From an uncultured Alphaproteobacteria bacterium (GTDB lineage: Bacteria; Pseudomonadota; Alphaproteobacteria; Methylaequorales; Methylaequoraceae), in the NCBI GenBank assembly GCA_902540805.1, contig CACBON010000001.1:85777-149776 (forward strand): DNA of 64,000 nt, read 5' to 3'. The notes under the pieces were generated by a model, which was not told the origin of the DNA, made no database searches, and worked only from the letters and a program-made list of their open reading frames with translations. How positions within the stretch are numbered: the first letter of the stretch is position 1; every line of letters starts with the position of its first letter. The position numbers and the translations under genes were made by a program. Shown one piece after another: positions 23,060 to 50,248 of this stretch.

Positions 23060-23085
23060 TTTCTTTATGTATAAATAGATTTATT

Positions 23086-23162: not shown

Positions 23163-23174
23163 GAGTGTTTAAAT

Positions 23175-27157: not shown

Positions 27158-27181
27158 AGCTATACTTCTTTAAGTAAAAAA

Positions 27182-27214: not shown

Positions 27215-27246
27215 GATTAAATCAAAAATTAATATATTATGTTCAC

Positions 27247-29418: not shown

Positions 29419-29424
29419 CTAAAT

Positions 29425-33521: not shown

Positions 33522-33534
33522 AAACTAGGTTAAA

Positions 33535-33975: not shown

Positions 33976-34439
33976 AAGAAGTTAGTCACGGAAAAACAAC
34001 AAAAGTTTTAATGCTAGAAGGAGAAACACTTTTTAATCAAGGTGATAAGGGTAATAAAGCTTACATGATAGTTCAAGGAGCTCTTGATGTAGTAGTTGAT
34101 GGAAAAAAAGTCGGTTCTATGAGAGATGGAGAGGTTTTTGGTGAAATGGCTTTAATTTTAAAACAAAACAGAAGCGCAACAATTACATCAAGTCAATCCA
34201 CAGAGTTGATATCCATTAGTAAAGAAAATCTTGATGAGCTTATTAATTCTGGTTCAAAAGCTGCTCAGAGGATAATTAGAGATTTATGTGAAGAACTCGC
34301 CAAAAGGACTGAATTTCAAAAAGTACTTTATTCACATAAGGAAATAGATGAGATAATAGCGTCAGAGAATCAAATAATACAAAAAATCACAAAACAAATT
34401 CTTTATAGATTAGAGCGGTCAACAAGTCATGTTGAATAA
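33972..34439 (+). CDS. Stand-alone cyclic-nucleotide-binding domain protein (no HTH)
   Basis: 155 aa with PBC FGEMALILKQNRSATITS. TTG start overlapping the upstream TGA (TTGA). Confidence 0.75.
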   Translation: MKEVSHGKTTKVLMLEGETLFNQGDKGNKAYMIVQGALDVVVDGKKVGSMRDGEVFGEMALILKQNRSATITSSQSTELISISKENLDELINSGSKAAQRIIRDLCEELAKRTEFQKVLYSHKEIDEIIASENQIIQKITKQILYRLERSTSHVE

Positions 34440-34476: not shown

Positions 34477-36174
34477 ATGAAATATTCAGATTATATTCAT
34501 GAATCAGAGATTAATCATAAATCTTTAAGTTATAATCTTCTCACTCCGAAGGCAACCAAAGGAAAACCCCTAAAGCCTCAAAAAATTAAAGTATCTCCTG
34601 CCAAGGCATTGACTCTGTTAGCCCCATACACAATTTCCAGAGTTATGGAGCAAATCAAAGCAGTTGTTCCACTTGCAGCATATTTATTTCTATTTCAACT
34701 TTTAATTCTAAGACAACCAATCTCTTCAGCGACCACAATTTGTCTAGGATTGATTGCAGTAATAATAGGCCTAGCAATTTTTATGGAGGGTCTTAAAACC
34801 GGTTTAATGCCATTTGGCAATGTAATTGGAGATACATTACCAAAAAAAGCACCTATGGTTCTTGTTTTAATTATTATTGGAATACTAGGAGTTGGGGTAA
34901 CTTATGCGGAACCAGCTATCGGAGCACTCAAAGCTTTTGGTTCGTCAATAAATCCACAGGACGCACCATATCTCTATGAGATACTCAACAATAGAAGTGA
35001 AACCTTAGTTGTAATGGTCGGTGCTGGCGTTGGACTAGCTGCTATCATTGGAACAATAAGGTTTGTAAAAGGTTGGTCTCTTAAACCTATGATTTATGCG
35101 GCTCTTGCACCAACAATAATTCTTACTGCATATGTATGGAGTAACCCTGATTTAAGAACTATTCTTGGATTAGCTTGGGATTGCGGAGCTGTTACTACTG
35201 GACCAGTTACTGTACCTCTTGTGCTATCACTAGGTATTGGAATTGCAGCATCAGCTGGCAAAGGAGATTCATCTCTTTCTGGTTTTGGCGTTGTTACAAT
35301 GGCTTCATTATTTCCAATTATCGCTGTTCTGATTCTTGCCATACACGTTTCTCAAACAATCTCAGTTGAGGAAATAATTGCTTCGACTGATATGGCTTCA
35401 GATATGGCCATAGGAGAGGTTTCTAAGTGGTCACAAACCCCGTTTGTTGAGATTATTGGAGGAGTCAGAGCAATACTTCCACTTGTAATATTTTTAATGA
35501 TTGTGCTTTTTGTAATCCTTAAATCTAAACTTCCTAATAATATGATAACAACTTATGGGCTAACTTTGTCCATTGTTGGAATGTGTGTCTTCAATATAGG
35601 TCTTACATATGGTTTAGGAGCAATAGGTGGCCAAGCTGGAACTAATCTTCCTGCTGCCTTTATGGAAGTTCCTGTAAGTGAAGTATCACCAATTTATAAC
35701 GAATTATTAGGTTTAACTATAGTAATCCTTTTCGCTTGGCTTTTAGGATTTGGCGCAACTCTTGCTGAGCCTGCACTTAATGCTCTTGGTTTAACAGTTC
35801 AAGAGCTCACAAATGGTGCCTTCAAAAAGTCAATGTTAATGTATAGTGTTGCCGGGGGCGTTGCATTTGGGATAGCCTTAGGTGTAGGAAAAATTGTCTT
35901 TGCTTTTGACTTAGCAACAGTTTTAATACCACTTTATCTTCTTGCAATTGTTTTAACTTACTTTTCAACTGAAGAATTTGTTAATGTCGCCTGGGATAGC
36001 GCTGGAGTCACAACCGGTCCTGTAACTGTACCACTTGTTTTGGCAATGGGTCTTGGTTTAGGAAATGCTGTATCCGCCACTGAGGGTTTTGGCATTCTAT
36101 CTATGGCAAGTATTTGTCCAATTCTTGCTGTACTCTTAATGGGACTATATATACAATTTAAACAAAAAAAATAA
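34477..36174 (+). CDS. Polytopic membrane protein with two DUF1538 domains
   Basis: 565 aa, about 12+ TMs. Duplicated signature AWDCGAVTTGPVTVPLVLSLGIG / AWDSAGVTTGPVTVPLVLAMGLG. Confidence 0.8.
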   Translation: MKYSDYIHESEINHKSLSYNLLTPKATKGKPLKPQKIKVSPAKALTLLAPYTISRVMEQIKAVVPLAAYLFLFQLLILRQPISSATTICLGLIAVIIGLAIFMEGLKTGLMPFGNVIGDTLPKKAPMVLVLIIIGILGVGVTYAEPAIGALKAFGSSINPQDAPYLYEILNNRSETLVVMVGAGVGLAAIIGTIRFVKGWSLKPMIYAALAPTIILTAYVWSNPDLRTILGLAWDCGAVTTGPVTVPLVLSLGIGIAASAGKGDSSLSGFGVVTMASLFPIIAVLILAIHVSQTISVEEIIASTDMASDMAIGEVSKWSQTPFVEIIGGVRAILPLVIFLMIVLFVILKSKLPNNMITTYGLTLSIVGMCVFNIGLTYGLGAIGGQAGTNLPAAFMEVPVSEVSPIYNELLGLTIVILFAWLLGFGATLAEPALNALGLTVQELTNGAFKKSMLMYSVAGGVAFGIALGVGKIVFAFDLATVLIPLYLLAIVLTYFSTEEFVNVAWDSAGVTTGPVTVPLVLAMGLGLGNAVSATEGFGILSMASICPILAVLLMGLYIQFKQKK

Positions 36175-36189
36175 TTAAAGGAAACAATT

Positions 36190-36546
36190 ATGGCCAGAGA
36201 TATCACTTATTTAACAGACGTTTTTTTAATCACTTGTGTTGTTGAAAGTGGTCTTGCCGACAAAATCATTGATGCAGCCACAAATGTTGGAGCACAAGGT
36301 GCAACAATTAACTATGCCAGGGGTACTGGCATTAGAAATAGAATGGGACTTCTTGGTGTAACTATAGACGAGCAAAAGGAAATAATAAGAATTATTGTTT
36401 CTAAAGAACAATCGAATAGAGTTTTTGAATCAATGTACTTAGCTGGAAATCTCGATACACCTGGGAAAGGAATAATGTGGATGGTTAAACTTGACAGAGT
36501 TGCGACTCATATACCTAAAGATGTCATTAAACGAGCCGGAGGGTAA
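36190..36546 (+). CDS. PII-like signal-transduction protein
   Basis: 118 aa. PII-like beta-alpha-beta pattern with a T-loop-like ARGTGIRNRMGLLG. Canonical neighbour of DUF1538 genes. Confidence 0.7.
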   Translation: MARDITYLTDVFLITCVVESGLADKIIDAATNVGAQGATINYARGTGIRNRMGLLGVTIDEQKEIIRIIVSKEQSNRVFESMYLAGNLDTPGKGIMWMVKLDRVATHIPKDVIKRAGG

Positions 36547-36849: not shown

Positions 36850-38121
36850 TTATCTTTCGGATAATGCAAAGCTAGCACCAGTTATAAAAGGAGTTAGGAA
36901 ATAATCCATAAAACTTCTTTTACCAGTTATAATTCCAACCATAACTGGAACACCAGACAAAAGTCTATATTCCTCGTTTTTTCGTGCAAAAGAGTTTTCA
37001 GAAGTTTCCACCTTAACTAAATAAAAACCCTCTTCATCTTTATTAGAAATTCTGTCAGCACCTACAAAAACAACCTTCCCTTTTATTGATCTAAACCTAG
37101 AGCCTTCAGGAGTATTTAGTCTAATTTTTGCTTCAAGGTTTTTTTTTACGTAACCAATTTCTGATAAAGGTAATTTTGCCTCAATGATTAGTTTTTCGTT
37201 TTCAGGTACAATTTCAACAACAGTTACGCCAGGAGCGACTATAGCTCCTTTAGAATTTACTGACACAAGTTTTATTGTTCCAGACACAGGGCTTTTTAAA
37301 ACAGTTCTATTTAAACTATCTGAATATTTCTGAATTCTTTTATTAAGTTCTTCTTTTTCTTTTCGGTACTGTGACAACTCGATATTTAAATCTTCTATGT
37401 AATTGTTTTGCACTTTTTCTAAGTCATTCTTGCTCAAATCAATAATAGATTGTTGTTCGTCGATACTCCCTTCAACCTCCTGCCTTTCTCTTAAAATTTC
37501 TAAATGCTTTAACCTATTTGTTGCTTCAACTTCTAACAATTTTTGACTAATATCTTCTTGTTCTTTAACGATTTTTAATCTTTTTTTTAAATTTTTGAGA
37601 TTTTTATTAGCTTTATCAATACTTGCTTTCTTGGACTTTATTTCAGAGTTGATTGCTTTTCTTCTACTTTGAAAAAGTTCATTTTCAGATTTTACTAATT
37701 CCTTGTCAAATAAATTATTTATATTTTCAGGAATTTCTATTGAATTATCAGAATTTATTTCAGAATTAACTCTAAGTATTGACAGATCAATTGATTTAAG
37801 TCTTGAATTAATTTCCTCAAATTCAGAGCTTGCTTTTTCTTTTGATAAAACTACTAAAGGCTGATTTATTTCAACTTTTTCACCTTCACTAATTAGTATT
37901 TCTTCAACTATTCCACCCTCTAAATGTTGCACATACTTCATTCTTCCTTGGGGTATTATTTTTCCATCAGCTAAGCTTAATACCTCAATAATTTTTAAAT
38001 TCACTAGTAGCAAAAAAATAAGTGAAAAAAGAATTAATGATACTTTTAGTCTTTTACTAATAACGTTTTTTGGTTTTTCATCGTTTTTAAATAAATTCCA
38101 TTTTACCCATTTCTCTGTCAT
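36850..38121 (-). CDS. HlyD-family T1SS membrane-fusion protein (locus B)
   Basis: 423 aa. N-terminal TM, GKIIPQGRMKYVQHLEGGIVEEILISEGEKVEINQPLV, a long coiled coil, and a C-terminal barrel (SPVSGTI...). Confidence 0.9.
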   Translation of the reverse strand: MTEKWVKWNLFKNDEKPKNVISKRLKVSLILFSLIFLLLVNLKIIEVLSLADGKIIPQGRMKYVQHLEGGIVEEILISEGEKVEINQPLVVLSKEKASSEFEEINSRLKSIDLSILRVNSEINSDNSIEIPENINNLFDKELVKSENELFQSRRKAINSEIKSKKASIDKANKNLKNLKKRLKIVKEQEDISQKLLEVEATNRLKHLEILRERQEVEGSIDEQQSIIDLSKNDLEKVQNNYIEDLNIELSQYRKEKEELNKRIQKYSDSLNRTVLKSPVSGTIKLVSVNSKGAIVAPGVTVVEIVPENEKLIIEAKLPLSEIGYVKKNLEAKIRLNTPEGSRFRSIKGKVVFVGADRISNKDEEGFYLVKVETSENSFARKNEEYRLLSGVPVMVGIITGKRSFMDYFLTPFITGASFALSER

Positions 38122-38125: not shown

Positions 38126-39715
38126 TCACCCTAAATTAGTTTGTTTATCACTTAATTTAATAATTTCAGAATCTTCTGAAAAACAAATTACGGTTTTTCC
38201 AGCTCTTTTTAATGAGGCTATCAATTTGAGTATCATATTTTTACCTAATTTATCTAGATATAATAACGGATCATCAAAAATATAAACTTGATAAGTTTTT
38301 GAAATCGACCGTGCAATATGTATTTTTTTTAAAATCCCTTTTGAATAATTTTTATTTATAGAATCAGTTATAGTTAAATCTGATTTTTTTAACTCTTTAT
38401 CTAATCCAACATTTTGAAGCAGTCTACTTACCTCTTGTTCATTCAGATCAGGGTTGGATATTAAAATATTATTTAAAATTGATGAATTTAACACTTCAAC
38501 ATCTTCTGGTATATAAGCTACTTGATTCTTATACCATTGCAATGATAGTTTCTCCAAATTAGTTTCATCTAATAAAATATCACCAGATTCTGGATTAATT
38601 AGTCCCATAAGTAATTTTGCAATTGTGGTCTTTCCCGAGCCATTCGATCCGCTAATAACTGAAATTTCTGATGAATTAAAATTAGCAGAGAAATTTTTAA
38701 TTATATACTTATTATCATTATCAAAAGAGTAGTTTACATTTTTAAGTTTATAATTCCCTATAATTTTACTTAGTTGCATACCCTCAACTCTATTTTTAGA
38801 GTTTTTGAAAAAATCTTGGCAATCATTAAGATACATATTTGTTCTCTCAATAATAGAATATGAATTTTGTGCTGATGAAATTGAACCCAATGCTCGAGTA
38901 GCAAATATATTAAATCCTATGAGGCTTCCAATAGTAAGATTTCCGTTTACGACAAAGATACTCCCAAATCCAATAGTAATGATTGATGATAATAAAACAA
39001 AAAAACTCGTTGTGGAGATTTGTTGAGCATCAAAATTTGCGGTTGAAGAGTCAATTTTTAATTTTTTATTTAAGTAATTTTCTAGATAATATCCAGAATA
39101 TTTAAATGCTAAAGTAGATTTTAAAAGCTCTTGATTAGTTCCAATCTCTTTAATTATTAATTTATCATTCTTAGATAAATTTAATTTTTCCAGGTTTAGA
39201 TTTTTATTTTTTATTAATCTTTGTTGCAATAACAAGAAAATAATAACAAGAATTAAAAAAATTGTTGCCAATAATAGGTCCAGAAAAAAAAGAATAATAA
39301 TAATCAAAGTTGCAAAAATTGAGTCGAGAAGATTTGACTGAACTTTGGGTGATAAGAATTGAAAAAAATTATTATTGAAATCAATTATTTCAACAAAATT
39401 TCTTTTTGAGGTTTTATTTTCTCTCTCAAAAAATGTTTTGATTAGGTCTAATTTAAAAAATTTTATTGGATTTATGAGAAGTTCACATAAGATTTTACTC
39501 CTTATATTCCTAAATATATACTCGAATACTGCAACTAAAAGAGCACCTGATAATAGAAAAAACAATGTTCCCTGAAGGCCGAATGCAATATATCTATTAA
39601 AAATGTGAATAATAAAGATTGGGCTTAATAAACCCATTATAGTGATAAAAAAAGTCAATAAAAGAATAGTATTTAGGGATTTACTTTCTTTTAATATGTG
39701 AAACCAAAACTTCAT
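38126..39715 (-). CDS. T1SS-type ABC protein (TMD+NBD, no N-terminal peptidase domain) with degenerate ATPase motifs
   Basis: 529 aa. Walker A GSNGSGKTT is intact. Signature is YSKGI, Walker B is IFDDP, the Q-loop is IPED, and the H-loop position is FSED. Confidence 0.8.
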   Translation of the reverse strand: MKFWFHILKESKSLNTILLLTFFITIMGLLSPIFIIHIFNRYIAFGLQGTLFFLLSGALLVAVFEYIFRNIRSKILCELLINPIKFFKLDLIKTFFERENKTSKRNFVEIIDFNNNFFQFLSPKVQSNLLDSIFATLIIIILFFLDLLLATIFLILVIIFLLLQQRLIKNKNLNLEKLNLSKNDKLIIKEIGTNQELLKSTLAFKYSGYYLENYLNKKLKIDSSTANFDAQQISTTSFFVLLSSIITIGFGSIFVVNGNLTIGSLIGFNIFATRALGSISSAQNSYSIIERTNMYLNDCQDFFKNSKNRVEGMQLSKIIGNYKLKNVNYSFDNDNKYIIKNFSANFNSSEISVISGSNGSGKTTIAKLLMGLINPESGDILLDETNLEKLSLQWYKNQVAYIPEDVEVLNSSILNNILISNPDLNEQEVSRLLQNVGLDKELKKSDLTITDSINKNYSKGILKKIHIARSISKTYQVYIFDDPLLYLDKLGKNMILKLIASLKRAGKTVICFSEDSEIIKLSDKQTNLG

Positions 39716-39767: not shown

Positions 39768-42434
39768 TTAAACTCCAGAAATTGTTTGGAATACAAATTC
39801 GTTACCAGTTAAATTATCATTATCATAATTACTTAGTTTAGCTAATGGTTCAAGTTCGCTATCAGCTATCATCCCATGATGATTATTGGTGTCTGTCCAA
39901 AACCAAATATAAGTACTTGTTCCATCACCTACGCTTATATACATTGATTCATTTTCAAAATCATTAGTTCCACTACCACTTACACTTATTGAAAAACCAG
40001 TGAAATGATTAGCAAGAGCAGAAGAACTCTCAGCAACGGCTGTTGTTAAATCATTAGTAAAATTGAATACATAGGGTAACTCATTGGAGTTACTAGTAAT
40101 ATCATAGTTACTACCAAACTGAGACGAGTCTGTGTGTATTAAACTTCGATTATAAGCTGACGAGGGAGCTTGAGAACCTACAATCAAATCATTACCGCTA
40201 GCTCTAAAGTCAATTATTTCATCTTTTGAAGTTCCGTCTATGTGACCTGGTTCATAATAAAATTTGTCATCACCATCATTTCCATAAAGGGTATCACTAC
40301 CCAGGCCCCCAACAATTATATCATCTTGGTCCCCACCGTTAAGTTCATCATCGCCCAAACCTCCAATCAATTTGTCATTTCCATCACCTCCAAAAATAAA
40401 ATCATTACCATCATCACCTCTTAAAACATCATCACCTTGATTACCAACTAGTTTGTCAATCCCATCACCTCCATTAATTGTGTCATTATTTATCCCTCCT
40501 TCAAGTGTATCCGCTCCATCTAATCCATTTATTACAATACTTGCGGTTTCAGAGGATTTATCAATAGTGTCGTTTGAATTTGTACCATCAAAAGTATTTG
40601 TTGTTTGAGAACTTGAGATTTCTGTTGATTGATCAAAATCTTGTTTCCTGTAATCATCATAAAGTGATGGATCGTCAAAAAAATAACTTTCAAAAGACTC
40701 TGTATCAGAAAAACTATAAGGATTTTCATCCAGAACTCCAAAAATTTCGTCTCCAAAACCAGAAGCACCTTGAAGAAAGTTTTCAAATCTCCCGCTTAAC
40801 TGACTTCCAAATACATCCATTGTTGCAGATCCAAAGGCTGGTCCCATTCCAAAAACAGGTATCATTACAGAATATTGACTAGCATTGATTGGTTCAGGTC
40901 CAAGTTGTGAACCTAATATTGGCCCCCCAACTCCAGGAGAAAATGTTTGTGCAAGTGGAGGGCCTCCTAATGGCCCACTATCTAGTGCTGATTCTCGAGC
41001 CGCAGATTCATCAAAACCACCTGCCACCGCCGCTTCAGCCATTGCTTGTTCAGGAGATGCTCCAGCTGAAAGTGCCGTATCAAAGGCTTCTCGAGCAGCT
41101 TGTTCATCACCTCCAGGTTGAGCTTCTTCAGGAGGGAGAGCTACCTCTTCTTCCGCTACAACCTCCTCTTCTGCAAGTGCTTGGTTCTCTTGGCCACCCT
41201 CCTCGAACAAATCTTCTTCAGCTCTTGCTATTTCCTCCTCTGTTGATTCCTCCTCCTCCTCAGCTAATTGCTCTTCTCCTTCTAAAGAACCTTCTTCTTC
41301 CAATACTTCTTCCGAAGTTTCTTCCACCTCTTCATCAGATTCTTCTTCTGAAGCTTCTTCTTGAGATTCCTCTTGCTGTTGATCTTGTTGTGGTGAAACC
41401 TCTTGCGGTGTAGGTGCTACAGTTGGTGTAGGTGGCAAAACGTTTAAAGCTGTTCCATAATTAGCTTGAATCTGTGCAGCGCTTAAAATAATTGGTGGAG
41501 GTGGTGGCGCATTAAAACTTACTACACTTGTGGTTGCACCAATTTGTTCTAGTATTTGTGTACCGCCAGCATTACTAATAGATATTTGTCCTACTCCCCC
41601 ATCGGCATCCTGAAGTAAAGTAAATGAGTTTTCGTTTCCTTCTACCGCAGCTTTACCGGCAACTGTAGTTCCTCTAATTCCGATGGTTGCAACAGGCGTT
41701 TTTATGGTCATGGCATCTTCTCCAGTTTTTGCTATCTCTCCACTTATAAAACTGAATGCACCCTCAACCATGTCTATAGTCATATTCCCATCCCCAGTTT
41801 CAGGATTATAAACCAACTCATCTAAAAGCATCTTTCCACCTTCAGATAAAGATAACGTGGTTTTATCCAAAAATGTAAGGCCAATCGCACCAGAATTTGA
41901 AACTGTAATTGTATCTCCTTGAAATACAGGGTCACCATTTGACAAGTTAAATTCGTTGCCGTCAACTCGTTTTGCTTTGGCTACACCCGTTAAACTCGAC
42001 ACTTCTCCTATCGATAATTCACCATCAAGAGACGCTTGAACATACTGACCTTTTGCAAATAAACCAGCCAACCTATCTACTAAACCTCCATGAAAGTTTA
42101 AACCATTTTCTGTTTGGATAGATGGGAGTCGATGATTTGTAAAATAATCAAAAAAAATGAATTCTTCGCCATCAACTGATGTTGCTATTAAATCCGTTTG
42201 CGTTTTTGATAAGTTAGCTTTCGGAAACCAAGAGGGAGCTTCTTTAATTGTTGGGATTTTTAAATGATTATTGCTTTTATCTAATTCAACATTTGTATCT
42301 ATGAATTCTTGAAGATCTTTTTTAAGATCATTGATAAAAAGCTTGTCTTTTAGACCTTCAATAGATGATCGTATTGAGTCTACTTTGTCTTTTTTAATGA
42401 CATTTATTTGATTTTCATTATACACATTCCACAA
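39768..42434 (-). CDS. FecR-domain / acidic spacer / RTX-repeat large secreted protein (T1SS-B cargo 1)
   Basis: 888 aa. N-terminal FecR-like beta region (GDPVFQGDTI...LSLSEGGKM), PPPPP hinge, Glu-rich spacer, about nine GGxGxD nonapeptides (GGINNDTINGGDGIDKLVGNQGDDVLRGDDGNDFIFGG...), and a C-terminal domain shared with the neighbouring gene. Confidence 0.85.
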   Translation of the reverse strand: MWNVYNENQINVIKKDKVDSIRSSIEGLKDKLFINDLKKDLQEFIDTNVELDKSNNHLKIPTIKEAPSWFPKANLSKTQTDLIATSVDGEEFIFFDYFTNHRLPSIQTENGLNFHGGLVDRLAGLFAKGQYVQASLDGELSIGEVSSLTGVAKAKRVDGNEFNLSNGDPVFQGDTITVSNSGAIGLTFLDKTTLSLSEGGKMLLDELVYNPETGDGNMTIDMVEGAFSFISGEIAKTGEDAMTIKTPVATIGIRGTTVAGKAAVEGNENSFTLLQDADGGVGQISISNAGGTQILEQIGATTSVVSFNAPPPPPIILSAAQIQANYGTALNVLPPTPTVAPTPQEVSPQQDQQQEESQEEASEEESDEEVEETSEEVLEEEGSLEGEEQLAEEEEESTEEEIARAEEDLFEEGGQENQALAEEEVVAEEEVALPPEEAQPGGDEQAAREAFDTALSAGASPEQAMAEAAVAGGFDESAARESALDSGPLGGPPLAQTFSPGVGGPILGSQLGPEPINASQYSVMIPVFGMGPAFGSATMDVFGSQLSGRFENFLQGASGFGDEIFGVLDENPYSFSDTESFESYFFDDPSLYDDYRKQDFDQSTEISSSQTTNTFDGTNSNDTIDKSSETASIVINGLDGADTLEGGINNDTINGGDGIDKLVGNQGDDVLRGDDGNDFIFGGDGNDKLIGGLGDDELNGGDQDDIIVGGLGSDTLYGNDGDDKFYYEPGHIDGTSKDEIIDFRASGNDLIVGSQAPSSAYNRSLIHTDSSQFGSNYDITSNSNELPYVFNFTNDLTTAVAESSSALANHFTGFSISVSGSGTNDFENESMYISVGDGTSTYIWFWTDTNNHHGMIADSELEPLAKLSNYDNDNLTGNEFVFQTISGV
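40260..40530 (-). repeat. RTX (hemolysin-type Ca-binding) nonapeptide repeat block
   Basis: Encodes GLDGADTLEGGINNDTINGGDGIDKLVGNQGDDVLRGDDGNDFIFGGDGNDKLIGGLGDDELNGGDQDDIIVGGLGSDTLYGNDGDDKF. Confidence 0.85.
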
Positions 42435-42505
42435 ACCACTGTTAATGCTATGTTTACGACATAAAAGGAAATTTATTTAGTTGAAAGCTCTATTATTCAG
42501 GAACT

Positions 42506-45500
42506 TTATATTGGACCAAAAGTGAAATTTGTTGCTCCAATGTTATCATTGTCAACACCAGTTAAGGTTGCTAAACCAAAAAGTTCTCCATTGTCAATAA
42601 CACCATTTCCACCGTCTGACCATCCATAGACATGACCATTAGTACTTGTATCTCCTGTTACAAGAATAAAATCAGTTGGACTTGAAATTGCAGTTGAACC
42701 ATCCGTTGTAACTTTGAAACTTGTGAGCTGATTTTTTACCCCTGTTGTTGTATTTGCTGATGAAAATTGTGATGTAAAATTGAAAACTGATGGAAGAACA
42801 TTTGAATTTGATCCCATATTATAAGTTGTACCGTGGAGTTGTACCATATTCACAACCGAAGCATCTCTTGCGTACGCACTTGTTTGAACTGAGGTAGAGA
42901 ACTGTAAAATATCACCTCCAGCTCCAACTGTGAAGTCCGTTATTGTGTCATTTCCTTCGGTCAAATCACCAAAATAAAAAGTATCTTGCCCAGCATTACC
43001 AGTTAAAGAATCACCGCCAAGTGCTCCCCAGAAAACGTCATTACCTGATCCACCTTTAAAAATATCTGCCCCACTGTAACCCTCAAAGCGCCATGCGGAA
43101 GATTCCGCAGATTTATCAACGTTATCAACATTACTTGATCCTATAAATGTAGTCCCACTACTTCCACCTCCACTTCCAGATTCAGCAGCTTCTTCCTCTT
43201 CAACATTCTCAAAAACACTTGGATCTTCATAATAAAAACCTTCAACAGGTTCTCCACCAAAGGGATCAGGACCATATGGATCAAAGCCTGCGGGACCAAA
43301 ACCTCCAGGAACAAAGCCTGAAGGACCAAAACCTCCAGGACCAAAGCCTCCAGGACCAAAGCCTGCAGGACCAAATCCTCCAGGACCAAAACCTCCAGGA
43401 CCAAAACCATCAGGACCAAATCCACCAGTGCCTCCTGGACCAAAGCCATCAGGACCAAATCCACCAGGGCCTCCTGGACCAAAGTCTCCTGGTCCACCCG
43501 GACCAAAATCACCGGGACCACCAGGACCAAAGTCTCCGGGACCTCCACCTGGATCAAAACCTAAAGGTCCACCAGGACCTCCATGAAAACCACCTCCATC
43601 ATTACCTGAAAAACCCGAGCCAATTACGGGAGCAGTTGTAACCGGTGCAATTGGAGCAAAACCTACTTGAGCTGGGATATAAGCACCTGGCTGTTGAACA
43701 GTACCAGGTGGTTGAAAAGAACCTGGTGGAAGAAAAGTTCCAAAGGAGCCTTGATCACCGCCCGAGCCAGGATCAAAATTTCCAGGTCCTACATCTGGAC
43801 TAAAGTCTCCTGGACCACCTGGACCAAAGTCTCCTGGACCACCAGGACCAAAATCTCCTGGGGCATCAAATCCACCCGGACCACCAGGACCAAAGTCTCC
43901 TGGACCACCGGGACCAAAGTCTCCTGGACCACCAAATCCAACTGGACCACCCGGGCCAAAGTCCCCTGGACCACCAGGACCAAAGTCTCCTGGACCACCT
44001 AGACCAAAGTCTCCTGGACCACCAGGACCAAAATCTCCTGGACCACCAGGACCAAAATCTCCAGGACCGCCAGGACCAAAATCTCCAGGACCTCCAAAAC
44101 CAAAATCATCAGGGCCACCGGGACCAAAATCTCCAGGACCACCGGGACCAAAATCTCCAGGACCTCCCGGACCAAAGTCTCCTGGGCCTCCAGGACCAAG
44201 AGGACCCCCTGCGAATTCATCACCTCCAACTGTTGCTGACAAAGGATCTCCTCCGAAACCACCTGGTGGTGGTGGAATTCCAGCAGCTGCTGCTGCCTCT
44301 GCCATTGCTTCTTCAGGAGATAAACCGGCTGCCAATGCAGTTTCAAAAGCCTCTCTTGCTGCTGCGTCTTGTTCAGGTGTAGGACCATCAGGACCGAAAT
44401 CTCCAGGTGGTAAAGGTTCTCCATCAGGTCCAATCGGTGGACCATCAGCAAGTGGTTCTCCATCAGGTCCTATTGGTGGGCCTCCAGGACCAAAATCTCC
44501 AGGGGGTAAGGGTTCTCCATCAGGTCCAATCGGTGGACCGCCTTCTCCCGGTGGTAAGGGTTCTCCGTCCGGTCCAATCGGTGGGCCGTCTCCTTCGGGA
44601 GGTCCTTCTTCTGCTAGTGGTTCTCCATCAGGTCCAATTGGCGGGCCCTCTTCTCCTTCTGGAGGACCTTCTGCTTCTAGTGGATCCTCTCCTTCTTCAC
44701 CCTCTGGAAGACCTTCTCCTTCCTCTCCCTCTGGAGGACCTTCTCCCTCCTCTTGCAGTTCCTCGTCAATAGCCTCCTCTTCTACTGCCTCTTCTTCCCC
44801 TTGAGACTCCTCTTCTTGAACTTGCTCCTGCTGTTGTTCTTGAGGCGGTGGAGGTGGTTGTGGTGTTGGAGCAACCACAGGAGTTGGTGGTAAAACATTT
44901 AAAGCTGTACCATAATTTGCTTGAATTTGTGCTGCACTTAAAATAATTGGTGGTGGAGGTGGGGCTGTAAAACTCGTTATACTCGTGGTCGCACCGACTT
45001 GTGCTAGAACTTGAGTTCCCCCAGCATTACTCACAGATATTTGTCCTACTCCTCCATCAGCATCTTGAAGAAGTGTAAAGGAGTTTTCATTGCCTTCAAC
45101 TGCAGCTTTACCTGCAACCGTAGTTCCTCTTATCCCAATAGTTGCGACAGGTGTCGAAACTTTCATGGCATCAGGTCCAGTTTTAGCAATTTCGCCACTC
45201 ACAAAGCTAAAAGCTCCTTCAACCATATCAACGGCCATACTTCCAGTTCCAGTTGCAGGGTCATAAACAAGTTCATCTAAAACCATTTTTCCACCCTCTG
45301 ATAATGAGAGAGTTGTTTTATCAAGAAATACTAATCCAATCGCTCCTGACCCAGTAGTTTCTACAGTATCACCCTGAAAAACTGGATCTCCGGTTGCAAG
45401 ATTTACAGTTGTTCCGTCCAAACGAGTTGCTTTAGCCTCTCCTGTAACACTGGAAACTTCTCCAATCGAAAGTGCGTTTGCATTATTGGCTTGCACGTAT

Positions 45501-45781
45501 TGTCCAGGTGTTAATGATCCAGATAAAGTATCAATTAAAGTGCCTTTGAGTAATAAACCGTTTTCAGTTTTGAGTGAAGGAAGTTCAAAGTTCGTAAAAA
45601 AATCTACTAATAATATTTCATCGCCAGCAGGTGAAGTTATTAGAAGGTCTGTTTGCGTTTTCGCAAAATTGGCCTTCGGTAACCAGCCTGGTAATCCATT
45701 AATGTCAATAGTGCTGCCAGCGTAGATCTTAGTTAAAGAACCACTGTCGTTCAGATTTATTTGTTGACTATTTCCTATCAT
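42506..45781 (-). CDS. FecR-domain / Pro-Gly elastomer-like repeat / RTX large secreted protein (T1SS-B cargo 2), tandem paralog of 39768..42434
   Basis: 1091 aa. The N-terminal ~310 aa are near-identical in long runs to the 888-aa protein. Spacer made of GPPIGPDGEPL, GPGGPGDF and GFGPG repeats. Short RTX block GGSGNDVFWGALGGDSLTGNAGQDTFYF. Shared C-terminal domain (SNSNxLPxVFNFT ... DNDN). Confidence 0.85.
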   Translation of the reverse strand: MIGNSQQINLNDSGSLTKIYAGSTIDINGLPGWLPKANFAKTQTDLLITSPAGDEILLVDFFTNFELPSLKTENGLLLKGTLIDTLSGSLTPGQYVQANNANALSIGEVSSVTGEAKATRLDGTTVNLATGDPVFQGDTVETTGSGAIGLVFLDKTTLSLSEGGKMVLDELVYDPATGTGSMAVDMVEGAFSFVSGEIAKTGPDAMKVSTPVATIGIRGTTVAGKAAVEGNENSFTLLQDADGGVGQISVSNAGGTQVLAQVGATTSITSFTAPPPPPIILSAAQIQANYGTALNVLPPTPVVAPTPQPPPPPQEQQQEQVQEEESQGEEEAVEEEAIDEELQEEGEGPPEGEEGEGLPEGEEGEDPLEAEGPPEGEEGPPIGPDGEPLAEEGPPEGDGPPIGPDGEPLPPGEGGPPIGPDGEPLPPGDFGPGGPPIGPDGEPLADGPPIGPDGEPLPPGDFGPDGPTPEQDAAAREAFETALAAGLSPEEAMAEAAAAAGIPPPPGGFGGDPLSATVGGDEFAGGPLGPGGPGDFGPGGPGDFGPGGPGDFGPGGPDDFGFGGPGDFGPGGPGDFGPGGPGDFGPGGPGDFGLGGPGDFGPGGPGDFGPGGPVGFGGPGDFGPGGPGDFGPGGPGGFDAPGDFGPGGPGDFGPGGPGDFSPDVGPGNFDPGSGGDQGSFGTFLPPGSFQPPGTVQQPGAYIPAQVGFAPIAPVTTAPVIGSGFSGNDGGGFHGGPGGPLGFDPGGGPGDFGPGGPGDFGPGGPGDFGPGGPGGFGPDGFGPGGTGGFGPDGFGPGGFGPGGFGPAGFGPGGFGPGGFGPSGFVPGGFGPAGFDPYGPDPFGGEPVEGFYYEDPSVFENVEEEEAAESGSGGGSSGTTFIGSSNVDNVDKSAESSAWRFEGYSGADIFKGGSGNDVFWGALGGDSLTGNAGQDTFYFGDLTEGNDTITDFTVGAGGDILQFSTSVQTSAYARDASVVNMVQLHGTTYNMGSNSNVLPSVFNFTSQFSSANTTTGVKNQLTSFKVTTDGSTAISSPTDFILVTGDTSTNGHVYGWSDGGNGVIDNGELFGLATLTGVDNDNIGATNFTFGPI
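43280..43560 (-). repeat. Coding tandem repeats, 15-bp period (GFGPG units) merging into 24-bp GPGGPGDF units
   Basis: Reiterated CCAGGACCAAA(R)CC units on the + strand. Protein: GFGPGGFGPGGFGPAGFGPGGFGPGGFGPSGF... Confidence 0.8.
43795..44205 (-). repeat. Coding tandem repeats, 24-bp period (GPGGPGDF octapeptide, about 15+ units)
   Basis: Reiterated CCAAAGTCTCCTGGACCACCAGGA-type units. Protein: GPGGPGDFGPGGPGDFGPGGPGDF... Confidence 0.85.
44395..44650 (-). repeat. Coding repeats encoding GPPIGPDGEPL (five copies with variable linkers)
   Basis: GGTTCTCCATCAGGTCCAATCGGTGG recurs. Protein: GPPIGPDGEPLAEE / ...LPPGE / ...LPPGDFGPG / ...LADG / ...LPPGDF. Confidence 0.8.
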
Positions 45782-45836: not shown

Positions 45837-47153
45837 TTATTCAACAAATTCAATTGATTCAATTGAAAGTCCTCCCATTAAACTCAAGAGAGTGTAACTA
45901 TTTATGAGAACCTCAATCTTAGCTGCAATCGCATCTGCTTGAGCATTAATTAGAGCAGTTTCACCCCCTAAAACATCAAGTAGAGTACGGTTTCCTGCCT
46001 GTCTTTCTTGTCTTGCAAGCTCTAAAAATTCACCAGAGATTCTTGCCTGATTTGTAAGAAATTGAGCATTTTGTTGAGCTGTTTTTAATCCGTCCCATGT
46101 AGTTCTTAACATTTGTTTAATCATATCTTCTTGATCTCTTATTCTTGTAGATGTTGCTAGATAAGATTCAATCGCAGCATCTTTACCAGCGTATTCCGAT
46201 AAACTTAGATTTAATGGATATGCAAAATCTAACTTTGCAGAGGTTTCTCTTTTGAATCCTACTACACCACCAAAATCTTGTTTTTCTGAATGACTCACTA
46301 TCCCTTTTACAGTTGGAAAAAGAGAAGATTTAGCTGTGTTTATTGCCTCTTTACCAATATCCTCTGTAATTCTTGCTGCAATCAGTGAGGGATTATTTTT
46401 CATTGTTATTTCCTCTGCCTCTTCCAGCGATTTAGGTAATTTGTCAAAAACAGATTTAAGGAGTACCAAAGAATTTAAATTATCTGGAAATGAATTATAA
46501 ACATATTCAAATTCATGTTTGGAAGTGGCTAATACACCTTCAAACTGAATTAAACGTGCCTGAGCACCAGCTAATTGAGTTTTTGCTTGGAGAACATCCG
46601 AAGTCAGTCCACCTCCTGCAGTTACTGCTGCATCTTCGAGTTCAGTTTGTTTTTTTATGTTTGCAACAGATTGTCTTGCGAACCGAACACTTTCCCTTGA
46701 TTGAATAATTCTCAAATATGCTGAAATTGCTCTTAATAAAATGTCATTTTTAATTTGTGTTTCAGTTGCCCGTGTTTGTTTTAATGATAATCTTGAAGTT
46801 TCTACTGTTGATTTAGTCAAACCAAAATCTGTAATTGTTTGAGTAATTTTTGCTGTTGCGTCCCTTGCCATCAATTGCGTGTTGTTTCCCGGTCCATATT
46901 TTATAATATTTTCATGTCCGTAGTTAGCTGTAACGTCTAACGAAGGAAAATAACCGCCCCTGGATTGTTTTAGTCTTAACTTAGCAGCCTCTATATCACT
47001 CTTAGTTGCTAATATTGTCTTATGATTGTTCAAAACTGACTTAAGTGCGGCTTTTAGATTATAGGGTATAACCTCAGCATTTTGGTCTTGCGCGACTAAC
47101 AATGATCCTGAACCGATCGCCAAAATAAAACATGCTATTAAAAATTTTCCCAT
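45837..47153 (-). CDS. tolC: TolC-family outer-membrane protein (T1SS locus B)
   Basis: About 438 aa from the ATG at 47153 (MGKFLIACFILAIGSGSLLVA signal peptide); the track start 47171 is a TTG. TolC two-repeat architecture, paralogous to 24627..25952. Confidence 0.85.
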   Translation of the reverse strand: MGKFLIACFILAIGSGSLLVAQDQNAEVIPYNLKAALKSVLNNHKTILATKSDIEAAKLRLKQSRGGYFPSLDVTANYGHENIIKYGPGNNTQLMARDATAKITQTITDFGLTKSTVETSRLSLKQTRATETQIKNDILLRAISAYLRIIQSRESVRFARQSVANIKKQTELEDAAVTAGGGLTSDVLQAKTQLAGAQARLIQFEGVLATSKHEFEYVYNSFPDNLNSLVLLKSVFDKLPKSLEEAEEITMKNNPSLIAARITEDIGKEAINTAKSSLFPTVKGIVSHSEKQDFGGVVGFKRETSAKLDFAYPLNLSLSEYAGKDAAIESYLATSTRIRDQEDMIKQMLRTTWDGLKTAQQNAQFLTNQARISGEFLELARQERQAGNRTLLDVLGGETALINAQADAIAAKIEVLINSYTLLSLMGGLSIESIEFVE

Positions 47154-47222
47154 ACTACAATTTATCCACAACTTATTGACTGTGAATAACTTAAAACGAC
47201 AATTTCTTACATTAGTTTATTT

Positions 47223-47945
47223 TTAACATGATTTTTTTGAATAATCTAGATATAAACTTTTTCCCTCTAAAAGTTTTAGGAAATTTGAAAAAAGTAGTTC
47301 TGAGTTATCATTATACCTTATTTCCTGTTTCAGCCTTCCAGCGAGTTGCAATCCAACTTGAGGACCAAACATTAAAGATGATAAGATATCAGCGTCTAAA
47401 ATTATTTTTTCAAGATCATCTTTTACATTTTCAGGTTTTACTGGGAAAAAGGTACTCTCAAATATTCTCTTGATCCTCTTCAATTCTTTAAAATTAAAGA
47501 CTTTCTTGAATAAAATTTTTTCTAATCCGTCATAACTTTTTAATTCTTGATAGTAGGGCTTGCTCATGAGTATCCTCCTACCCTGATGATTCATATCATG
47601 AGTGAGGGCTATTATGACTAATAAAAGCCTATCTTTATATTTTAAATTTATCTGTTTTCCTAATATGCATGAAATTACCAAAACTGACTTAAAGTGATGG
47701 GAATCATGGTATGTATTGAAACAGGTATTTCTTAAACATAATTTTGATAATTTTCTAATAATAGATTTATAGTCTTTTAACTTAAAAACTTTTAGCTCTT
47801 TTAAACATATAATTGCTATCGAGTATAAATCTGGTTGTTTATGATTTGACAAAACATATTTTTTTAAAATACATTTTGTTCTAGGCCAATTCTTAACTAT
47901 GTAATTTAAACTTGGTAAACCTTTATCTAACGGAAGATTCCTCAT
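47223..47945 (-). CDS. HD-superfamily phosphohydrolase with class-I cyclic-nucleotide-phosphodiesterase-like motifs
   Basis: About 240 aa from the ATG at 47945, which forms an ATGA overlap with the cyclase stop. NTYHDSHHFKSV then, ~35 aa later, ALTHDMNHQG (compare PDE YHNxxHAxDV ... HDxxHxG), and a later DADILSS. Confidence 0.5.
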   Translation of the reverse strand: MRNLPLDKGLPSLNYIVKNWPRTKCILKKYVLSNHKQPDLYSIAIICLKELKVFKLKDYKSIIRKLSKLCLRNTCFNTYHDSHHFKSVLVISCILGKQINLKYKDRLLLVIIALTHDMNHQGRRILMSKPYYQELKSYDGLEKILFKKVFNFKELKRIKRIFESTFFPVKPENVKDDLEKIILDADILSSLMFGPQVGLQLAGRLKQEIRYNDNSELLFSNFLKLLEGKSLYLDYSKKSC

Positions 47946-50248
47946 TTGCTTTTCATTACCCAAACACCATTCCAATCGGTTGGTTTTTCCTCAATTAACA
48001 AATTGCACCTCTCAATGTATGTTTTTGATAAGTTATCTTGAGGATTTGATTTTAGACATTCTTTAAAAGATGAGATAGCTTGTTCAAAACCTCCACTTTT
48101 ATAATGTTTTCTACCTTCATTAAAATGATTAACAACATCCATTAAATTTGGAAAAGTTTTATCATTGTGATAATCTAAAACTTCGTGAACACCAATCGGT
48201 TCGTTTTTTCCTTTAACAACTACATCATCTATATATCTTATGCGATAAGTACCTTTAAGTTTTTTAAATGTATAGTCACTAATTAATATTCTTGCACTGT
48301 ATTGTTTGCATGCACTCTCTAAACGTGCAGCTAAGTTCACACCGTCACCAATCATCGTATAATCCATTCTTTTTTGTGATCCGATATTTCCTGCCACAAT
48401 TTTGTCGGTATTTAATCCTAATCCCATATCAACAGCTGGTTTTCCATCTTTTTCTCTGTGCTCGTTCCACTCCCATAATCTTTTGATCATATTGATACCA
48501 GCTTTAACGCCCCTATCTTCATCATCTTCATGTGATATTGGAAGACCGAATGCAGCCATTATTGCATCCCCAATAAATTTATCTAACATCCCGCCCTGTT
48601 CAGATATACATTCAACCATTATTTCAAAATACTCATTCAATAATTTGACAGTACCTTGAGCACCTAAAGACTCTGTAATTGTTGTAAAGCTTCTCAGATC
48701 AGAAAACAATAAAGTTGCAGTTGTTTCTAGCCCTCCCATTATTTCAGATCCATCCTCTAATAATTGATCTGCTATTCCAGGATCCATATATCTAGACATT
48801 GTTGATTTCATTCTTTTTTCTGAAGAAATATCTTCAAACATTAATAGTGTACCCAGAAAATTATCTGATTGGTCTGTTCTACCGTCACTATCCTCATTTA
48901 TAAGTGGAAGTATTGTCAAGTTTACTGATATTTTTTCTTCTTTTTCTGTTTCATAATCGAAAACCTCTATTTCTGCGTCAACAATAATTTCAGGTTCTTT
49001 TGATTCACCAACACACTTGATTTTCTCGTATATCCATTTTTTATTTCCTGAAAAAAAATCTTTAGATTGTTTTTTTATTATTTCTAAATCTTTAGTTCGC
49101 AATATTTTTAAGCCAGATTTGTTACAAGTAACAATTTCTTCTTCACTGTTAATTGTAATAACTCCGTTAGACATACTAGAAAGCATACTTTCGTTATACT
49201 TTCTAGATTTAGATACATCTTCGAAAAGTTTGGCATTTTCAAGCGCAATTGCAACTTGTTGAGTAAATGCCTTTAATCTAGATTCATCTTCATCTGTAAA
49301 TTTTCCACCAATCTTATTTAAAACTTGTGTACAACCGATAACCTTTCCTTCTTTATTTACAACAGGTACACATAAAATCGAACGAGTAAAATATCCTGTT
49401 TGTTTATCGAATGAAGGGTTGAATCGTAAATCAGCGTAAGCGTAAGGAATATTCATTGATTTGCCAGAGGAAAAGACAGACCCTGCTATTCCTGCTGTGT
49501 TTGGAAGTCTTATCTCTCCAATGCCTTCACCCATAGCTACCCGTGAAAATAATTCATTTGTTTTTTCGTCATTTAAAAACAAAGTAGCTCTGTCAGCATT
49601 AAGCATTCGTGTTGCCTCTTCCATTACTCTTTGCAGTAAGGCTCCTAGATCAATTTCAGCTGTCACATCAGAAACTATACTTATAAACTCCATTTCTTTG
49701 GCTCTTTTTTTTTCAAAATATTCTGTATTTTGTGCATTTTGTATTGATACAGCAGCTTGGGTGGCAATTGCCTCTGTAAAGACAAGATTATCTTTTGAAA
49801 ATCTACCTTTTTTTTTATTTAAAACTTGAATAACCCCTATTGTTTGTCCGTCGACGGTTTTAACTGGACAGCAAATCATATTTTTTGTCTTATAACCAGT
49901 TTCCTGATCAACTTCTTTATTAAAACGAGAATCGGCATAAACGTCATGAATCACCTCTCCAGATTGGTTTTGAAAAATTGCGCCAGCTATTCCAACATTG
50001 TTTAAAATTCTAATTTCGCGAGTCAAATCACCTTGGGCAACTCTTGAATAAAGTTCATTAGTTTCGTTATCATTTAAAAATAATGTTCCTCTATCTGCAT
50101 CTAACTCATTAGTAACGAATTCTATAAGTGTCCATAAAATCTCCTCCAAAGATTTAAGTCCAGCAATTTTTCGTGAAATCTGAAGTAAAAGTTCAGTTCT
50201 TCTTAGTTTCTCCAAGGTTTGGACTATGTTTTCATTAGCATTTTTCAT
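47942..50248 (-). CDS. CyaB1-like adenylate cyclase: GAF-GAF-PAS-class III cyclase with a C-terminal TPR-like tail
   Basis: 768 aa. Two PDE/CyaB-type GAFs (ADSRFNKEVDQETGYKTKNMICCPV; ADLRFNPSFDKQTGYFTRSILCVPV), a PAS-like region (NGVITINSEEEIVTCNKSG), and a cyclase domain LFSDLRSFTTITE...DKFIGDAIMAAFGLP...RMDYTMIGDGVNLAARLES. Confidence 0.9.
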   Translation of the reverse strand: MKNANENIVQTLEKLRRTELLLQISRKIAGLKSLEEILWTLIEFVTNELDADRGTLFLNDNETNELYSRVAQGDLTREIRILNNVGIAGAIFQNQSGEVIHDVYADSRFNKEVDQETGYKTKNMICCPVKTVDGQTIGVIQVLNKKKGRFSKDNLVFTEAIATQAAVSIQNAQNTEYFEKKRAKEMEFISIVSDVTAEIDLGALLQRVMEEATRMLNADRATLFLNDEKTNELFSRVAMGEGIGEIRLPNTAGIAGSVFSSGKSMNIPYAYADLRFNPSFDKQTGYFTRSILCVPVVNKEGKVIGCTQVLNKIGGKFTDEDESRLKAFTQQVAIALENAKLFEDVSKSRKYNESMLSSMSNGVITINSEEEIVTCNKSGLKILRTKDLEIIKKQSKDFFSGNKKWIYEKIKCVGESKEPEIIVDAEIEVFDYETEKEEKISVNLTILPLINEDSDGRTDQSDNFLGTLLMFEDISSEKRMKSTMSRYMDPGIADQLLEDGSEIMGGLETTATLLFSDLRSFTTITESLGAQGTVKLLNEYFEIMVECISEQGGMLDKFIGDAIMAAFGLPISHEDDEDRGVKAGINMIKRLWEWNEHREKDGKPAVDMGLGLNTDKIVAGNIGSQKRMDYTMIGDGVNLAARLESACKQYSARILISDYTFKKLKGTYRIRYIDDVVVKGKNEPIGVHEVLDYHNDKTFPNLMDVVNHFNEGRKHYKSGGFEQAISSFKECLKSNPQDNLSKTYIERCNLLIEEKPTDWNGVWVMKSK

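Follow-up and report, generated by a model that had tools for sequence, protein, structure and literature searches.

We analyzed a 64,000-nucleotide (nt) stretch of contig CACBON010000001.1 (positions 85,777 to 149,776), from an uncultured alphaproteobacterium of the family Methylaequoraceae, referred to here as the window. Within it, two adjacent minus-strand open reading frames (ORFs) encode paralogous proteins in which a FecR-like N-terminal module (N-module) is followed by a low-complexity spacer, an RTX block, and a C-terminal domain. The longer paralogue, p1091 (42506..45781; 1091 amino acids [aa]), begins with ATG, and the shorter, p888 (39768..42434; 888 aa), with TTG. The p888 start is uncertain by ~10 codons, its orthologue at the related locus L001 having been called at 878 aa. 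The best sigma-70-like match of the region (TTAACA-17-TATAAT, 11/12; 42417-42445, minus strand) overlaps this TTG and may be a chance occurrence in an AT-rich window.

The two genes belong to a co-directional minus-strand cluster of seven, in the order cyclase, a gene for a 250-aa protein, TolC, p1091, p888, ATP-binding cassette (ABC) transporter, and HlyD, with successive intergenic gaps of -34, 51, 55, 71, 52, and 4 nt. A preliminary description of this DNA had placed the pair next to a type I secretion system (T1SS), and a complete set of T1SS components does flank it on the same strand. A TolC-family outer membrane channel (45837..47171; Pfam OEP, 7e-53) lies 55 nt upstream of p1091 and scores 190.6 bits against TIGR01844, below the cutoff of 225. 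A 529-aa T1SS ABC permease/ATPase (38126..39715; ABC_tran, 6.2e-23) lies 52 nt from p888, and a HlyD-family membrane fusion protein (MFP) is encoded 4 nt past the ABC gene (36850..38121; TIGR01843, 289.7 bits, cutoff 208.65). T1SS synteny around genes for the module is kept in related loci L001-L009, L013, L015, and L016.

The window is AT rich (~25-35% GC) and chromosomal, containing gyrA, mfd, recG, recQ, and four tRNAs. The GC content of p888 and p1091 is raised, to 38% and 47%, respectively. However, GC at third codon positions is 0.20 and 0.19 in the two ORFs, the level of neighboring genes, indicating that the excess stems from a Gly/Pro/Ala/Glu-rich composition; horizontal transfer as its source is ruled out on this ground. 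Neither protein contains Cys, and their net charges are -122 (p888) and -129 (p1091). No signal peptide or transmembrane segment was found in either, the maximum 19-residue Kyte-Doolittle hydropathy being 1.19 and 1.28.

To establish how the paralogues are related, both their proteins and their DNA were compared. By BLASTP, the N-modules (p888 residues 63-333 and p1091 residues 27-297) align without gaps over 271 aa with 74% identity (E, 3e-128), and the C-terminal ~330 residues have 27% identity (E, 1e-24). Two long identical runs reported earlier in the N-modules were both recovered (at p888 246/p1091 210 and p888 309/p1091 273), and the homologous DNA, described as lying at about 41400-42260 and 44870-45700, was located at 41436-42248 and 44891-45703. 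These segments are 70.7% identical, with a longest identical run of 18 nt. Third-position identity is 0.27 to 0.63, and of 200 conserved residues, 100 have the same codon in both. Within the N-module, the second half retains 80 to 90% amino acid identity between the duplicates, while synonymous sites are near saturation. As half of the codons differ and no identical DNA run exceeds 18 nt, the identical peptide runs reflect purifying selection acting on an old duplication, and recent gene conversion is ruled out as their cause. Consistent with an old duplication, there are separate orthologues of each paralogue (P0039 of the p888 type, P0001 and P0302 of the p1091 type), and tandem pairs are found in L001, L002, L003, L006, and L008, as well as in the distant Rhodospirillaceae loci L009, L013, and L074. 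The exact p1091 sequence is present in a public collection, together with a 1082-aa allele, P0302.

The N-module of p1091 occupies residues 1-301 (44879..45781). That of p888 spans residues 63-337 (41424..42248) and is preceded by a Lys/Asn-rich 62-aa extension (42249-42434, minus strand), which is retained in orthologue P0039. An AlphaFold model of the p1091 N-module, built on an alignment of 61 relatives, has a pLDDT of 88.4 and a pTM of 0.83. It predicts a small beta domain, A (residues ~15-90), which a low-confidence linker separates from the all-beta domain B (107-270); a poly-Pro segment and a helix (283-295) complete the module. The earlier assignment of this module as FecR-like holds in both sequence and predicted fold. 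Pfam FecR (PF04773) scores 27.6 bits in p888 and 30.3 bits in p1091, above the cutoff of 24, and is matched by all 61 relatives. Foldseek searches of the PDB with the model return the periplasmic domain of PupR (6OVK; E, 1.9e-5) and the Bacteroides anti-sigma factor BDI_1681 (4M0N; E, 1.6e-4; also 4M0H). This structural match spans ~153 of the 301 residues, with a TM-score of 0.36 when normalized to the query and 0.50 when normalized to the target.

A second relationship links the same module to T1SS adhesins that are held in the outer membrane. Foldseek matches the model to the cell surface anchoring domain of MpIBP (5IX9), the ice-binding RTX adhesin of Marinomonas primoryensis, with a target-normalized TM-score of 0.78, a root mean square deviation of 0.9 Å, and 31% identity. 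In addition, a profile of the family matches the 5IX9 sequence with an E value of 2.2e-9 (profile positions 106-182, chain positions 12-88). NF033682, the "retention module" model, is matched by 61 of 61 relatives, at best with an E value of 1.2e-11; the window proteins reach 5e-5 to 9e-5, over residues 107-171 of p1091 and 143-207 of p888. The matched model positions, 4-68, are nearly those matched by the RIN region of MpIBP itself (3-68). Judged by these profile alignments and by the predicted fold, the first ~75 residues of domain B are homologous to the LapA/MpIBP retention module. Models of the N-terminal prefix-like region of BapA match some relatives as well (NF033677 in 15 of 61, PF22783 in 9 of 61), although p888 and p1091 themselves do not reach an E value of 0.01 with either. 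These prefix-like matches may correspond to domain A.

A Pfam FecR scan of MpIBP RIN alone gives no match, which rules out a direct link between RIN and Pfam FecR. As the family described here matches both, it forms a sequence bridge between proteins labeled "FecR" and those labeled "retention module," and it is through this family that the link passes. Within the literature library searched, no paper was found to connect the retention-module fold with the FecR fold, and none had both terms. The function of the retention module has been described for both adhesins. In MpIBP, RIN is periplasmic and, measuring 24 x 28 x 26 Å, is too large for the ~20-Å TolC pore, so that it acts as a plug (Guo et al. 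2017, PMC5550230). For LapA, the O'Toole laboratory describes the retention module, M1-S125, as holding the protein in LapE until LapG cuts at 108AA109 (PMC10990149; 10.1101/198937).

Between the N-module and the RTX block, no Pfam or NCBIfam domain was found in p888 or p1091, and the composition is of low complexity. The two spacers had been described as entirely different and swapped. A closer look shows instead that they have the same elements in the same order, namely, a Pro-rich stretch, an acidic block, a helix motif, a Gly/Pro/Phe block, and an aromatic-acidic motif before the RTX block, and that p1091 is merely the longer of the two through tandem repeats. In p1091, a Pro-rich/acidic linker (residues 302-470; 44372..44878; ~28% Pro, 23% Glu, 20% Gly) is followed by an Ala-rich helix motif, DAAAREAFETALAAGLSPEEAMAEAAAAAG (residues 471-500; 44282..44371), and a Gly/Pro/Phe repeat block (residues 501-845; 43247..44281; 42% Gly, 21% Pro, 13% Phe, 9% Asp). 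The p888 spacer (40686..41423) is colinear, with an acidic block at residues 338-445, the 30-aa Ala-rich helix motif at 446-475 (41010-41099, minus strand), and a Gly/Ser/Pro/Phe block at 476-583. The Glu-rich acidic blocks carry similar net charges, -48 in p888 and about -51 in p1091. In contrast, the Gly/Pro/Phe-rich block of p1091, at 345 aa, far exceeds that of p888, which is ~90 to 108 aa according to where its ends are set. TRF identifies tandem DNA repeats in p1091 with periods of 24 nt (17.3 copies) and 15 nt (10.1 copies), which account for this length difference; at the protein level, there are 14 GPGGPG[DG]F, 8 GFGPxG, and 5 PIGPDGEPL units, the last of these in the acidic linker. 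GPGGx-like and FG-like units invite comparison with elastomeric proteins and FG-nucleoporins, which the repeat chemistry recalls by analogy only.

The helix motif, ~30 aa long with the consensus AAREAF(D/E)TAL.(A/S)G.SPE(E/Q)AMAEAA, is common to both spacers (73% identity; BLASTP E, 3e-4 within the pair). Its p1091 version is 100% identical in P0302, L001, and L003 and 96% identical in L004. It is thus fully conserved where the N-modules are 91 to 96% identical, and it remains at 96% where they are 78% identical. In these alignments, no other part of the proteins, folded domains included, is as conserved as the 30-aa spacer helix. Weaker versions of it occur ~100 to 170 residues past the module in distant relatives of 1,400 to 2,000 aa. 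The low-complexity blocks on either side behave quite differently. Between alleles, there are 22 to 48 gap positions in the two blocks, compared to 0 to 2 in the module, the helix, and the C-terminal domain; the p1091 Gly/Pro/Phe block alone has 31 to 48, and the acidic linker is also indel rich. The variation in spacer length that a survey of related genomes had been suggested to reveal is therefore present, as strains differ by indels restricted to the low-complexity blocks.

At the C-terminal end of the spacer, the aromatic-acidic motif reads ESYFFDDPSLYDDY in p888 and EGFYYEDPSVFENV in p1091. In p888, it is followed by an RTX block of eight G..G.D units and a post-RTX domain at residues 721-888 (39771..40685, including the motif). 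In p1091, the motif is followed by a Ser/Gly linker, an RTX beta-roll at residues ~881-940, and a post-RTX domain at 941-1091 (42509..43246, again with the motif). HemolysinCabind scores 62.4 bits in p888 and 25.5 bits in p1091 (cutoff 23). The C-terminal domain said to be shared after the RTX repeats is indeed common to both proteins, with 27 to 35% identity and the SNSN.LP.FNFT and DNDN motifs. Its AlphaFold model (pLDDT, 87.9) shows the beta-roll running into a beta-sandwich, and Foldseek matches it to serralysins, a family I.3 lipase, AlgE R-modules, and block V of CyaA. Going by sequence and modeled structure, the C-terminal region is an ordinary RTX/T1SS secretion domain, and the idea that the post-RTX domain is ligand-binding cargo is unsupported, as its fold is the usual one at the RTX C termini of serralysins, lipases, and AlgE. 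Pfam and NCBIfam scans of p888 and p1091 detected no separate ligand-binding or catalytic cargo. Homologues of the post-RTX domain were sought with a trimmed profile, as a wider one gave mostly generic RTX proteins. The trimmed profile retrieved 54 proteins from a collection of 5.8 billion sequences, all of them marine metagenome sequences.

How widely the N-module is distributed was then considered. Relatives are encoded in at least 569 stretches when one genome per species is scanned. An exhaustive profile search yielded 25,638 representatives (50%-identity clusters) at E values of ≤1e-3, a set that includes general FecR proteins, and 3,240 at ≤1e-30; the latter are mostly alphaproteobacterial in the sample examined. 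Among the 150 best representatives, the module starts within ~60 residues of the N terminus in 147, and RTX motifs are present in 92 of the 117 representatives of at least 600 aa. A FecR-type module on a T1SS substrate had been considered unusual, which these counts contradict; in Alphaproteobacteria, the combination is common. Across 80 loci, which include Magnetospirillum, Terasakiella, and Novispirillum, the module heads proteins of ~830 to >3,600 aa, the longest of which runs beyond the end of its locus. In 19 of the 80, among relatives that are only 25 to 50% identical, the gene immediately upstream of that for the module encodes a TolC-family protein, and ~20 loci have ABC and HlyD genes close by; TolC also directly precedes the module gene in L081, L084, and L086. 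The 100 residues past the module are often acidic and of low complexity, as 28 of 65 scorable representatives have at least 50% Glu, Asp, Pro, Gly, and Gln in this segment, and others are Ala/Glu rich.

Many homologues of only 300 to 500 aa (P0001, P0003, P0008, P0015, P0017, and that of L002) end frame-shifted within repeats, for example, in ...GRKEKVLQKEKRARQLVLMENH. At L081 (10001-21233), from a Magnetovibrio metagenome-assembled genome (MAG), the 410-aa "FecR domain" protein P0079 corresponds to the start of a giant gene, which an IS1595 transposase gene and a RhuM-like gene have interrupted; an 8,212-aa ORF comes next, and OEP is directly upstream. An architecture of their own for the "short" homologues is ruled out by the frame-shifted repeat ends and the IS1595 split. 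Instead, repeat-induced assembly and polishing errors in MAGs have left the gene family fragmented and underannotated. Repeats break both metagenome assemblies and gene calls, and the family is systematically misannotated as short "FecR domain-containing" fragments. At L083 (1-2856; Magnetococcales MAG), the same module is found in another genomic context, in that a CHAT-domain protein is encoded immediately upstream of module gene P0107, the product of which has a tail of KKEGE repeats.

Taken together, the RTX scores above cutoff, the flanking T1SS genes, the serralysin-like C-terminal domain, the lack of a signal peptide, transmembrane segment, and Cys, and the acidic charge argue that p888 and p1091 are very probably T1SS substrates, which the adjacent system would export. 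What becomes of them after export is less certain, and here we lean toward retention of both proteins at the cell surface by the N-module. The matches to 5IX9, to NF033682, and to the BapA prefix, the N-terminal position of the module, its linkage to TolC, and the acidic linkers all speak for a plug. In such a scheme, each protein would consist of three working parts: a folded N-module of ~300 aa, a long and very acidic disordered spacer, and a Ca2+-dependent RTX roll with its secretion domain. Export would proceed C terminus first, and the RTX roll would fold outside the cell in the calcium of seawater. The ~30-kDa N-module, folding without calcium and exceeding the ~20-Å TolC pore, would lodge on the periplasmic side as a plug, with the Pro/Glu-rich linker (residues 302-470 in p1091) threading the TolC channel. 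Outside the cell, the RTX cap and the Gly/Pro/Phe repeats that carry it would then form a flexible tether or brush on the surface, in two lengths. As no separate cargo is detected, the disordered region and the RTX/C-terminal domain would themselves be the functional surface, and the displayed spacer, in this topology, may have an adhesive or elastic role. On balance, we favor viewing p888 and p1091 as surface-tethered, cargo-less disordered RTX proteins that descend from an ancient duplication of a T1SS substrate.

Several observations weigh against such retention. The ABC protein has no C39, CLD, or LapB-type N-terminal domain. Its best NCBIfam match, LssB, covers profile positions 140-670 only, whereas PrtD is matched over positions 5-522, and the 52 nt between the ABC gene and p888 leave no space for an N-terminal extension. 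The transporter resembles the AprD/PrtD type, and in relatives the MFP annotation is AprE-type. Known substrates of AprD/PrtD-type transporters are fully released. In contrast, LapB-type transporters are characterized by an N-terminal domain of ~125 aa (10.1101/198937). Neither LapG (BTLCP, PF06035) nor LapD was found among the 42 window ORFs scanned with Pfam, nor within ±10 kb in L081, L084, L085, and L086. The NF033682 scores of the window proteins, 22.7 to 26.2 bits, lie below the curated cutoff of 50 and involve only the first half of the 145-position model, and ~100 to 140 extra residues precede the retention-like segment, so that it is not at the extreme N terminus. The linker before the helix motif, at 110 to 170 aa, is far longer than the ~45 residues estimated to span TolC. 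Potential cleavage sites are poorly conserved: the di-alanine past the module, part of SAAQ here, gives way to STAQ, TTAQ, or TPAQ in close relatives; elsewhere, the sequence is FSPQ, PVAQ, or SPQQ. AAG in the spacer helix varies among AAG, SAG, ADG, ASG, and GNG. Given this variability, neither "TALAAG" in the spacer helix nor "SAAQ" past the module qualifies as a conserved LapG site. Finally, the N- and C-terminal structures are both predictions.

Many of these points would follow if p888 and p1091 were fully released as T1SS exoproteins, with the FecR-like module binding outside the cell and the spacer serving as a soluble Ca2+-binding or matrix polymer. The transporter type, the AprE-type MFPs, the lack of a release protease or receptor in the contexts scanned, and the retention-module score below its curated cutoff favor release, as does the fact that 58 of 61 relatives match models of the Leptospira proteins LipL45 and Lsa33, to which there is weak similarity across the FecR-like domain. 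However, the window proteins score only 18 to 25 bits against these models, far under their cutoffs of 350 to 420. LipL45 and Lsa33 are, moreover, Sec-exported lipoproteins, whereas p888 and p1091 are signal-less. Full release also does not explain why a free binding domain should be N-terminal in 147 of 150 representatives, why the best sequence match among solved structures is a periplasmic plug, 5IX9, rather than an extracellular adhesin, or why the module gene and a dedicated TolC gene should be so tightly linked. We regard full release, the main rival to retention, as on the whole unlikely. The likeness to AprDEF and PrtDEF systems extends from the short ABC protein and the AprE-type MFP to the serralysin/lipase-like RTX roll and sandwich. 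In contrast to the substrates of those systems, p888 and p1091 lack a catalytic domain, and each combines a retention-like N-module with a long disordered spacer.

A canonical Lap system, in which a LapG-like BTLCP protease and a receptor for cyclic di-GMP or another nucleotide are encoded elsewhere and cleavage occurs beside the module, is quite improbable. It would fit the homology to the LapA/MpIBP retention module, the di-alanine helix (ILSAAQIQ) past the module, which is reminiscent of the module-helix-linker layout of LapA, and the nucleotide cyclases and cNMP-binding proteins that flank the T1SS clusters. It does not fit the absence of BTLCP and LapD from the window and the four other annotated contexts, the replacement of the di-alanine in close relatives and others, or the ABC protein without a LapB-type N-domain; furthermore, the neighboring signaling genes are of the cAMP/cGMP type, not the cyclic di-GMP type. 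A true FecR-type signaling role, with the N-module as a periplasmic, anti-sigma-like sensor acting via a TonB-dependent receptor, is hardly credible, for although the Pfam FecR score exceeds its cutoff and the predicted fold resembles the periplasmic domains of PupR and a Bacteroides anti-sigma factor, that match covers only about half of the module, with a TM-score of 0.36 or 0.50 depending on normalization, there is no transmembrane segment or N-terminal anti-sigma domain, no sigma factor of the extracytoplasmic function type or TonB-dependent receptor is present among the window genes scanned, and the module is joined to a C-terminal RTX secretion domain with T1SS neighbors.

Returning to retention by the N-module, p888 and p1091 probably work like LapA and MpIBP at the anchoring step. 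Like those adhesins, they are very probably T1SS substrates, with a C-terminal RTX block and a homologous, presumably calcium-independent N-terminal beta module, past which come a helix and a flexible linker, and a dedicated TolC-family gene lies in the operon. There are also clear differences. With its extra N-terminal domain and full FecR-like domain, the module is ~300 aa here and ~125 aa in LapA. The di-alanine is not conserved, the LapB-type ABC N-domain is missing, and neither LapG nor LapD turned up in the contexts scanned. The passenger is a disordered, acidic Gly/Pro/Phe chain in place of the Ig-like extenders and ligand-binding domains of LapA and MpIBP, and p888 and p1091 are small (0.9 to 1.1 kaa) and form a tandem pair. 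We therefore conclude that p888 and p1091 are not members of the BTLCP-linked subfamily. Of the LapA-like plug proposed in the preliminary description, the homology to 5IX9 and to NF033682 (61 of 61 relatives) stands, whereas a canonical Lap arrangement does not, for want of nearby LapG/LapD, a conserved di-alanine, and the LapB N-domain. More broadly, its ORFs, their homology, the FecR fold, and the T1SS all hold, in contrast to the rarity it attributed to the module and the swapping it saw in the spacers. BapA/SiiE-type adhesins are likewise T1SS RTX proteins, and prefix-like models match some relatives of p888 and p1091; however, the window proteins lack Ig-like repeat arrays. FecR and PupR share with this family PF04773 above cutoff and the domain B fold over ~153 columns, but they differ in that the module here has no transmembrane helix or anti-sigma N-domain and is fused to an RTX secretion domain. 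Its role is likely structural, as a plug, rather than one of signaling.

If the N-module does plug, TolC retention of T1SS substrates would be far wider than the LapG/LapD-linked systems of Gammaproteobacteria and Desulfovibrio, and retention would not require the known release machinery and would be compatible with a short ABC protein of the AprD type. The family also connects the fold of the retention module with that of FecR. Small-genome planktonic marine bacteria would be devoting ~6 kb to a pair of disordered surface tethers that are highly acidic and vary in length between strains. Such an investment would be relevant to surface charge, the binding of calcium or metals, attachment to particles, and interactions with phages or grazers. 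A retention-module RTX family without nearby Lap regulators, with a short ABC protein and a disordered passenger, is a variation on a known theme and not a new system. One may go further and combine a LapG-independent, two-step T1SS branch in which an enlarged FecR-like plug anchors cargo-less disordered proteins, an acidic, elastomer- or FG-like brush of two lengths on streamlined open-ocean alphaproteobacteria, cAMP/cGMP-regulated display, the derivation of retention modules from FecR-type periplasmic domains, and the 30-aa helix as a docking or stopper element. That all of these hold jointly is, in our estimate, distinctly doubtful.

The remaining genes of the cluster lie upstream of TolC. 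The first encodes a GAF-GAF-PAS adenylate/guanylate cyclase (47942..50248, minus strand; Pfam GAF, 3.8e-38; Guanylate_cyc, 7.9e-23), whose synteny is kept in L001-L006 and L086. It overlaps by 34 nt the gene for the conserved 250-aa protein (47223..47975, minus strand), which has H..HD..D motifs within YHDSHHFKSV, THDMNHQG, and DADIL. Orthologues of this gene, 55 to 94% identical, occupy the equivalent position in L001-L006, and a similar-sized gene is found there in L086. Pfam HD scores 16.5 bits (E, 0.011), below the cutoff of 22, and a PDB sequence search with the 250-aa protein gave no match. The motifs indicate that it is possibly an HD-superfamily phosphohydrolase, and it may be a nucleotide phosphohydrolase partnered with the GAF-PAS cyclase. 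Its identification as a class I cyclic-nucleotide phosphodiesterase was set aside, the resemblance being at the motif level only, with no PDB match and an HD score below cutoff.

A second T1SS-like cluster is located on the plus strand at 24627-34439. It begins with OEP (24627-25952) and a 363-aa protein without a Pfam match (26066-27157), followed by an ABC protein that contains Peptidase_C39 (27247-29418) and a HlyD-family adaptor whose N-terminal domain binds cNMP (29425-31149). An adenylate/guanylate cyclase of the CHASE2 type (31146-33521) and a small cNMP-binding protein (33972-34439) complete the cluster. With the cyclase and cNMP-binding genes of this cluster, cyclic-nucleotide genes flank both secretion clusters. 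The 363-aa ORF, between OEP and the C39-containing ABC gene, is acidic and of low complexity, rich in Pro, Gly, Asp, and Met, with repeats such as PPPGDMAGGPAIDPATGMAPQPPEGPGEGG, and its product may be a substrate of the second cluster. Homology between the spacer helix motif and the N terminus of this ORF was considered and ruled out (BLASTP E, >0.5).

Between the two clusters, a DUF1538 membrane protein and then a P-II-like protein are encoded on the plus strand (34477-36546), convergent with the HlyD gene, and the same pair also flanks the L086 operon. The lowest-GC stretch of the window (25 to 28%) is at 12000-24000, where several ORFs have no Pfam match and an AAA ATPase, an SRAP peptidase, a histone-deacetylase-family protein, and a Sel1-repeat protein are also encoded. 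This stretch may be a variable region, and tRNA-Arg and tRNA-Pro lie at its right edge.

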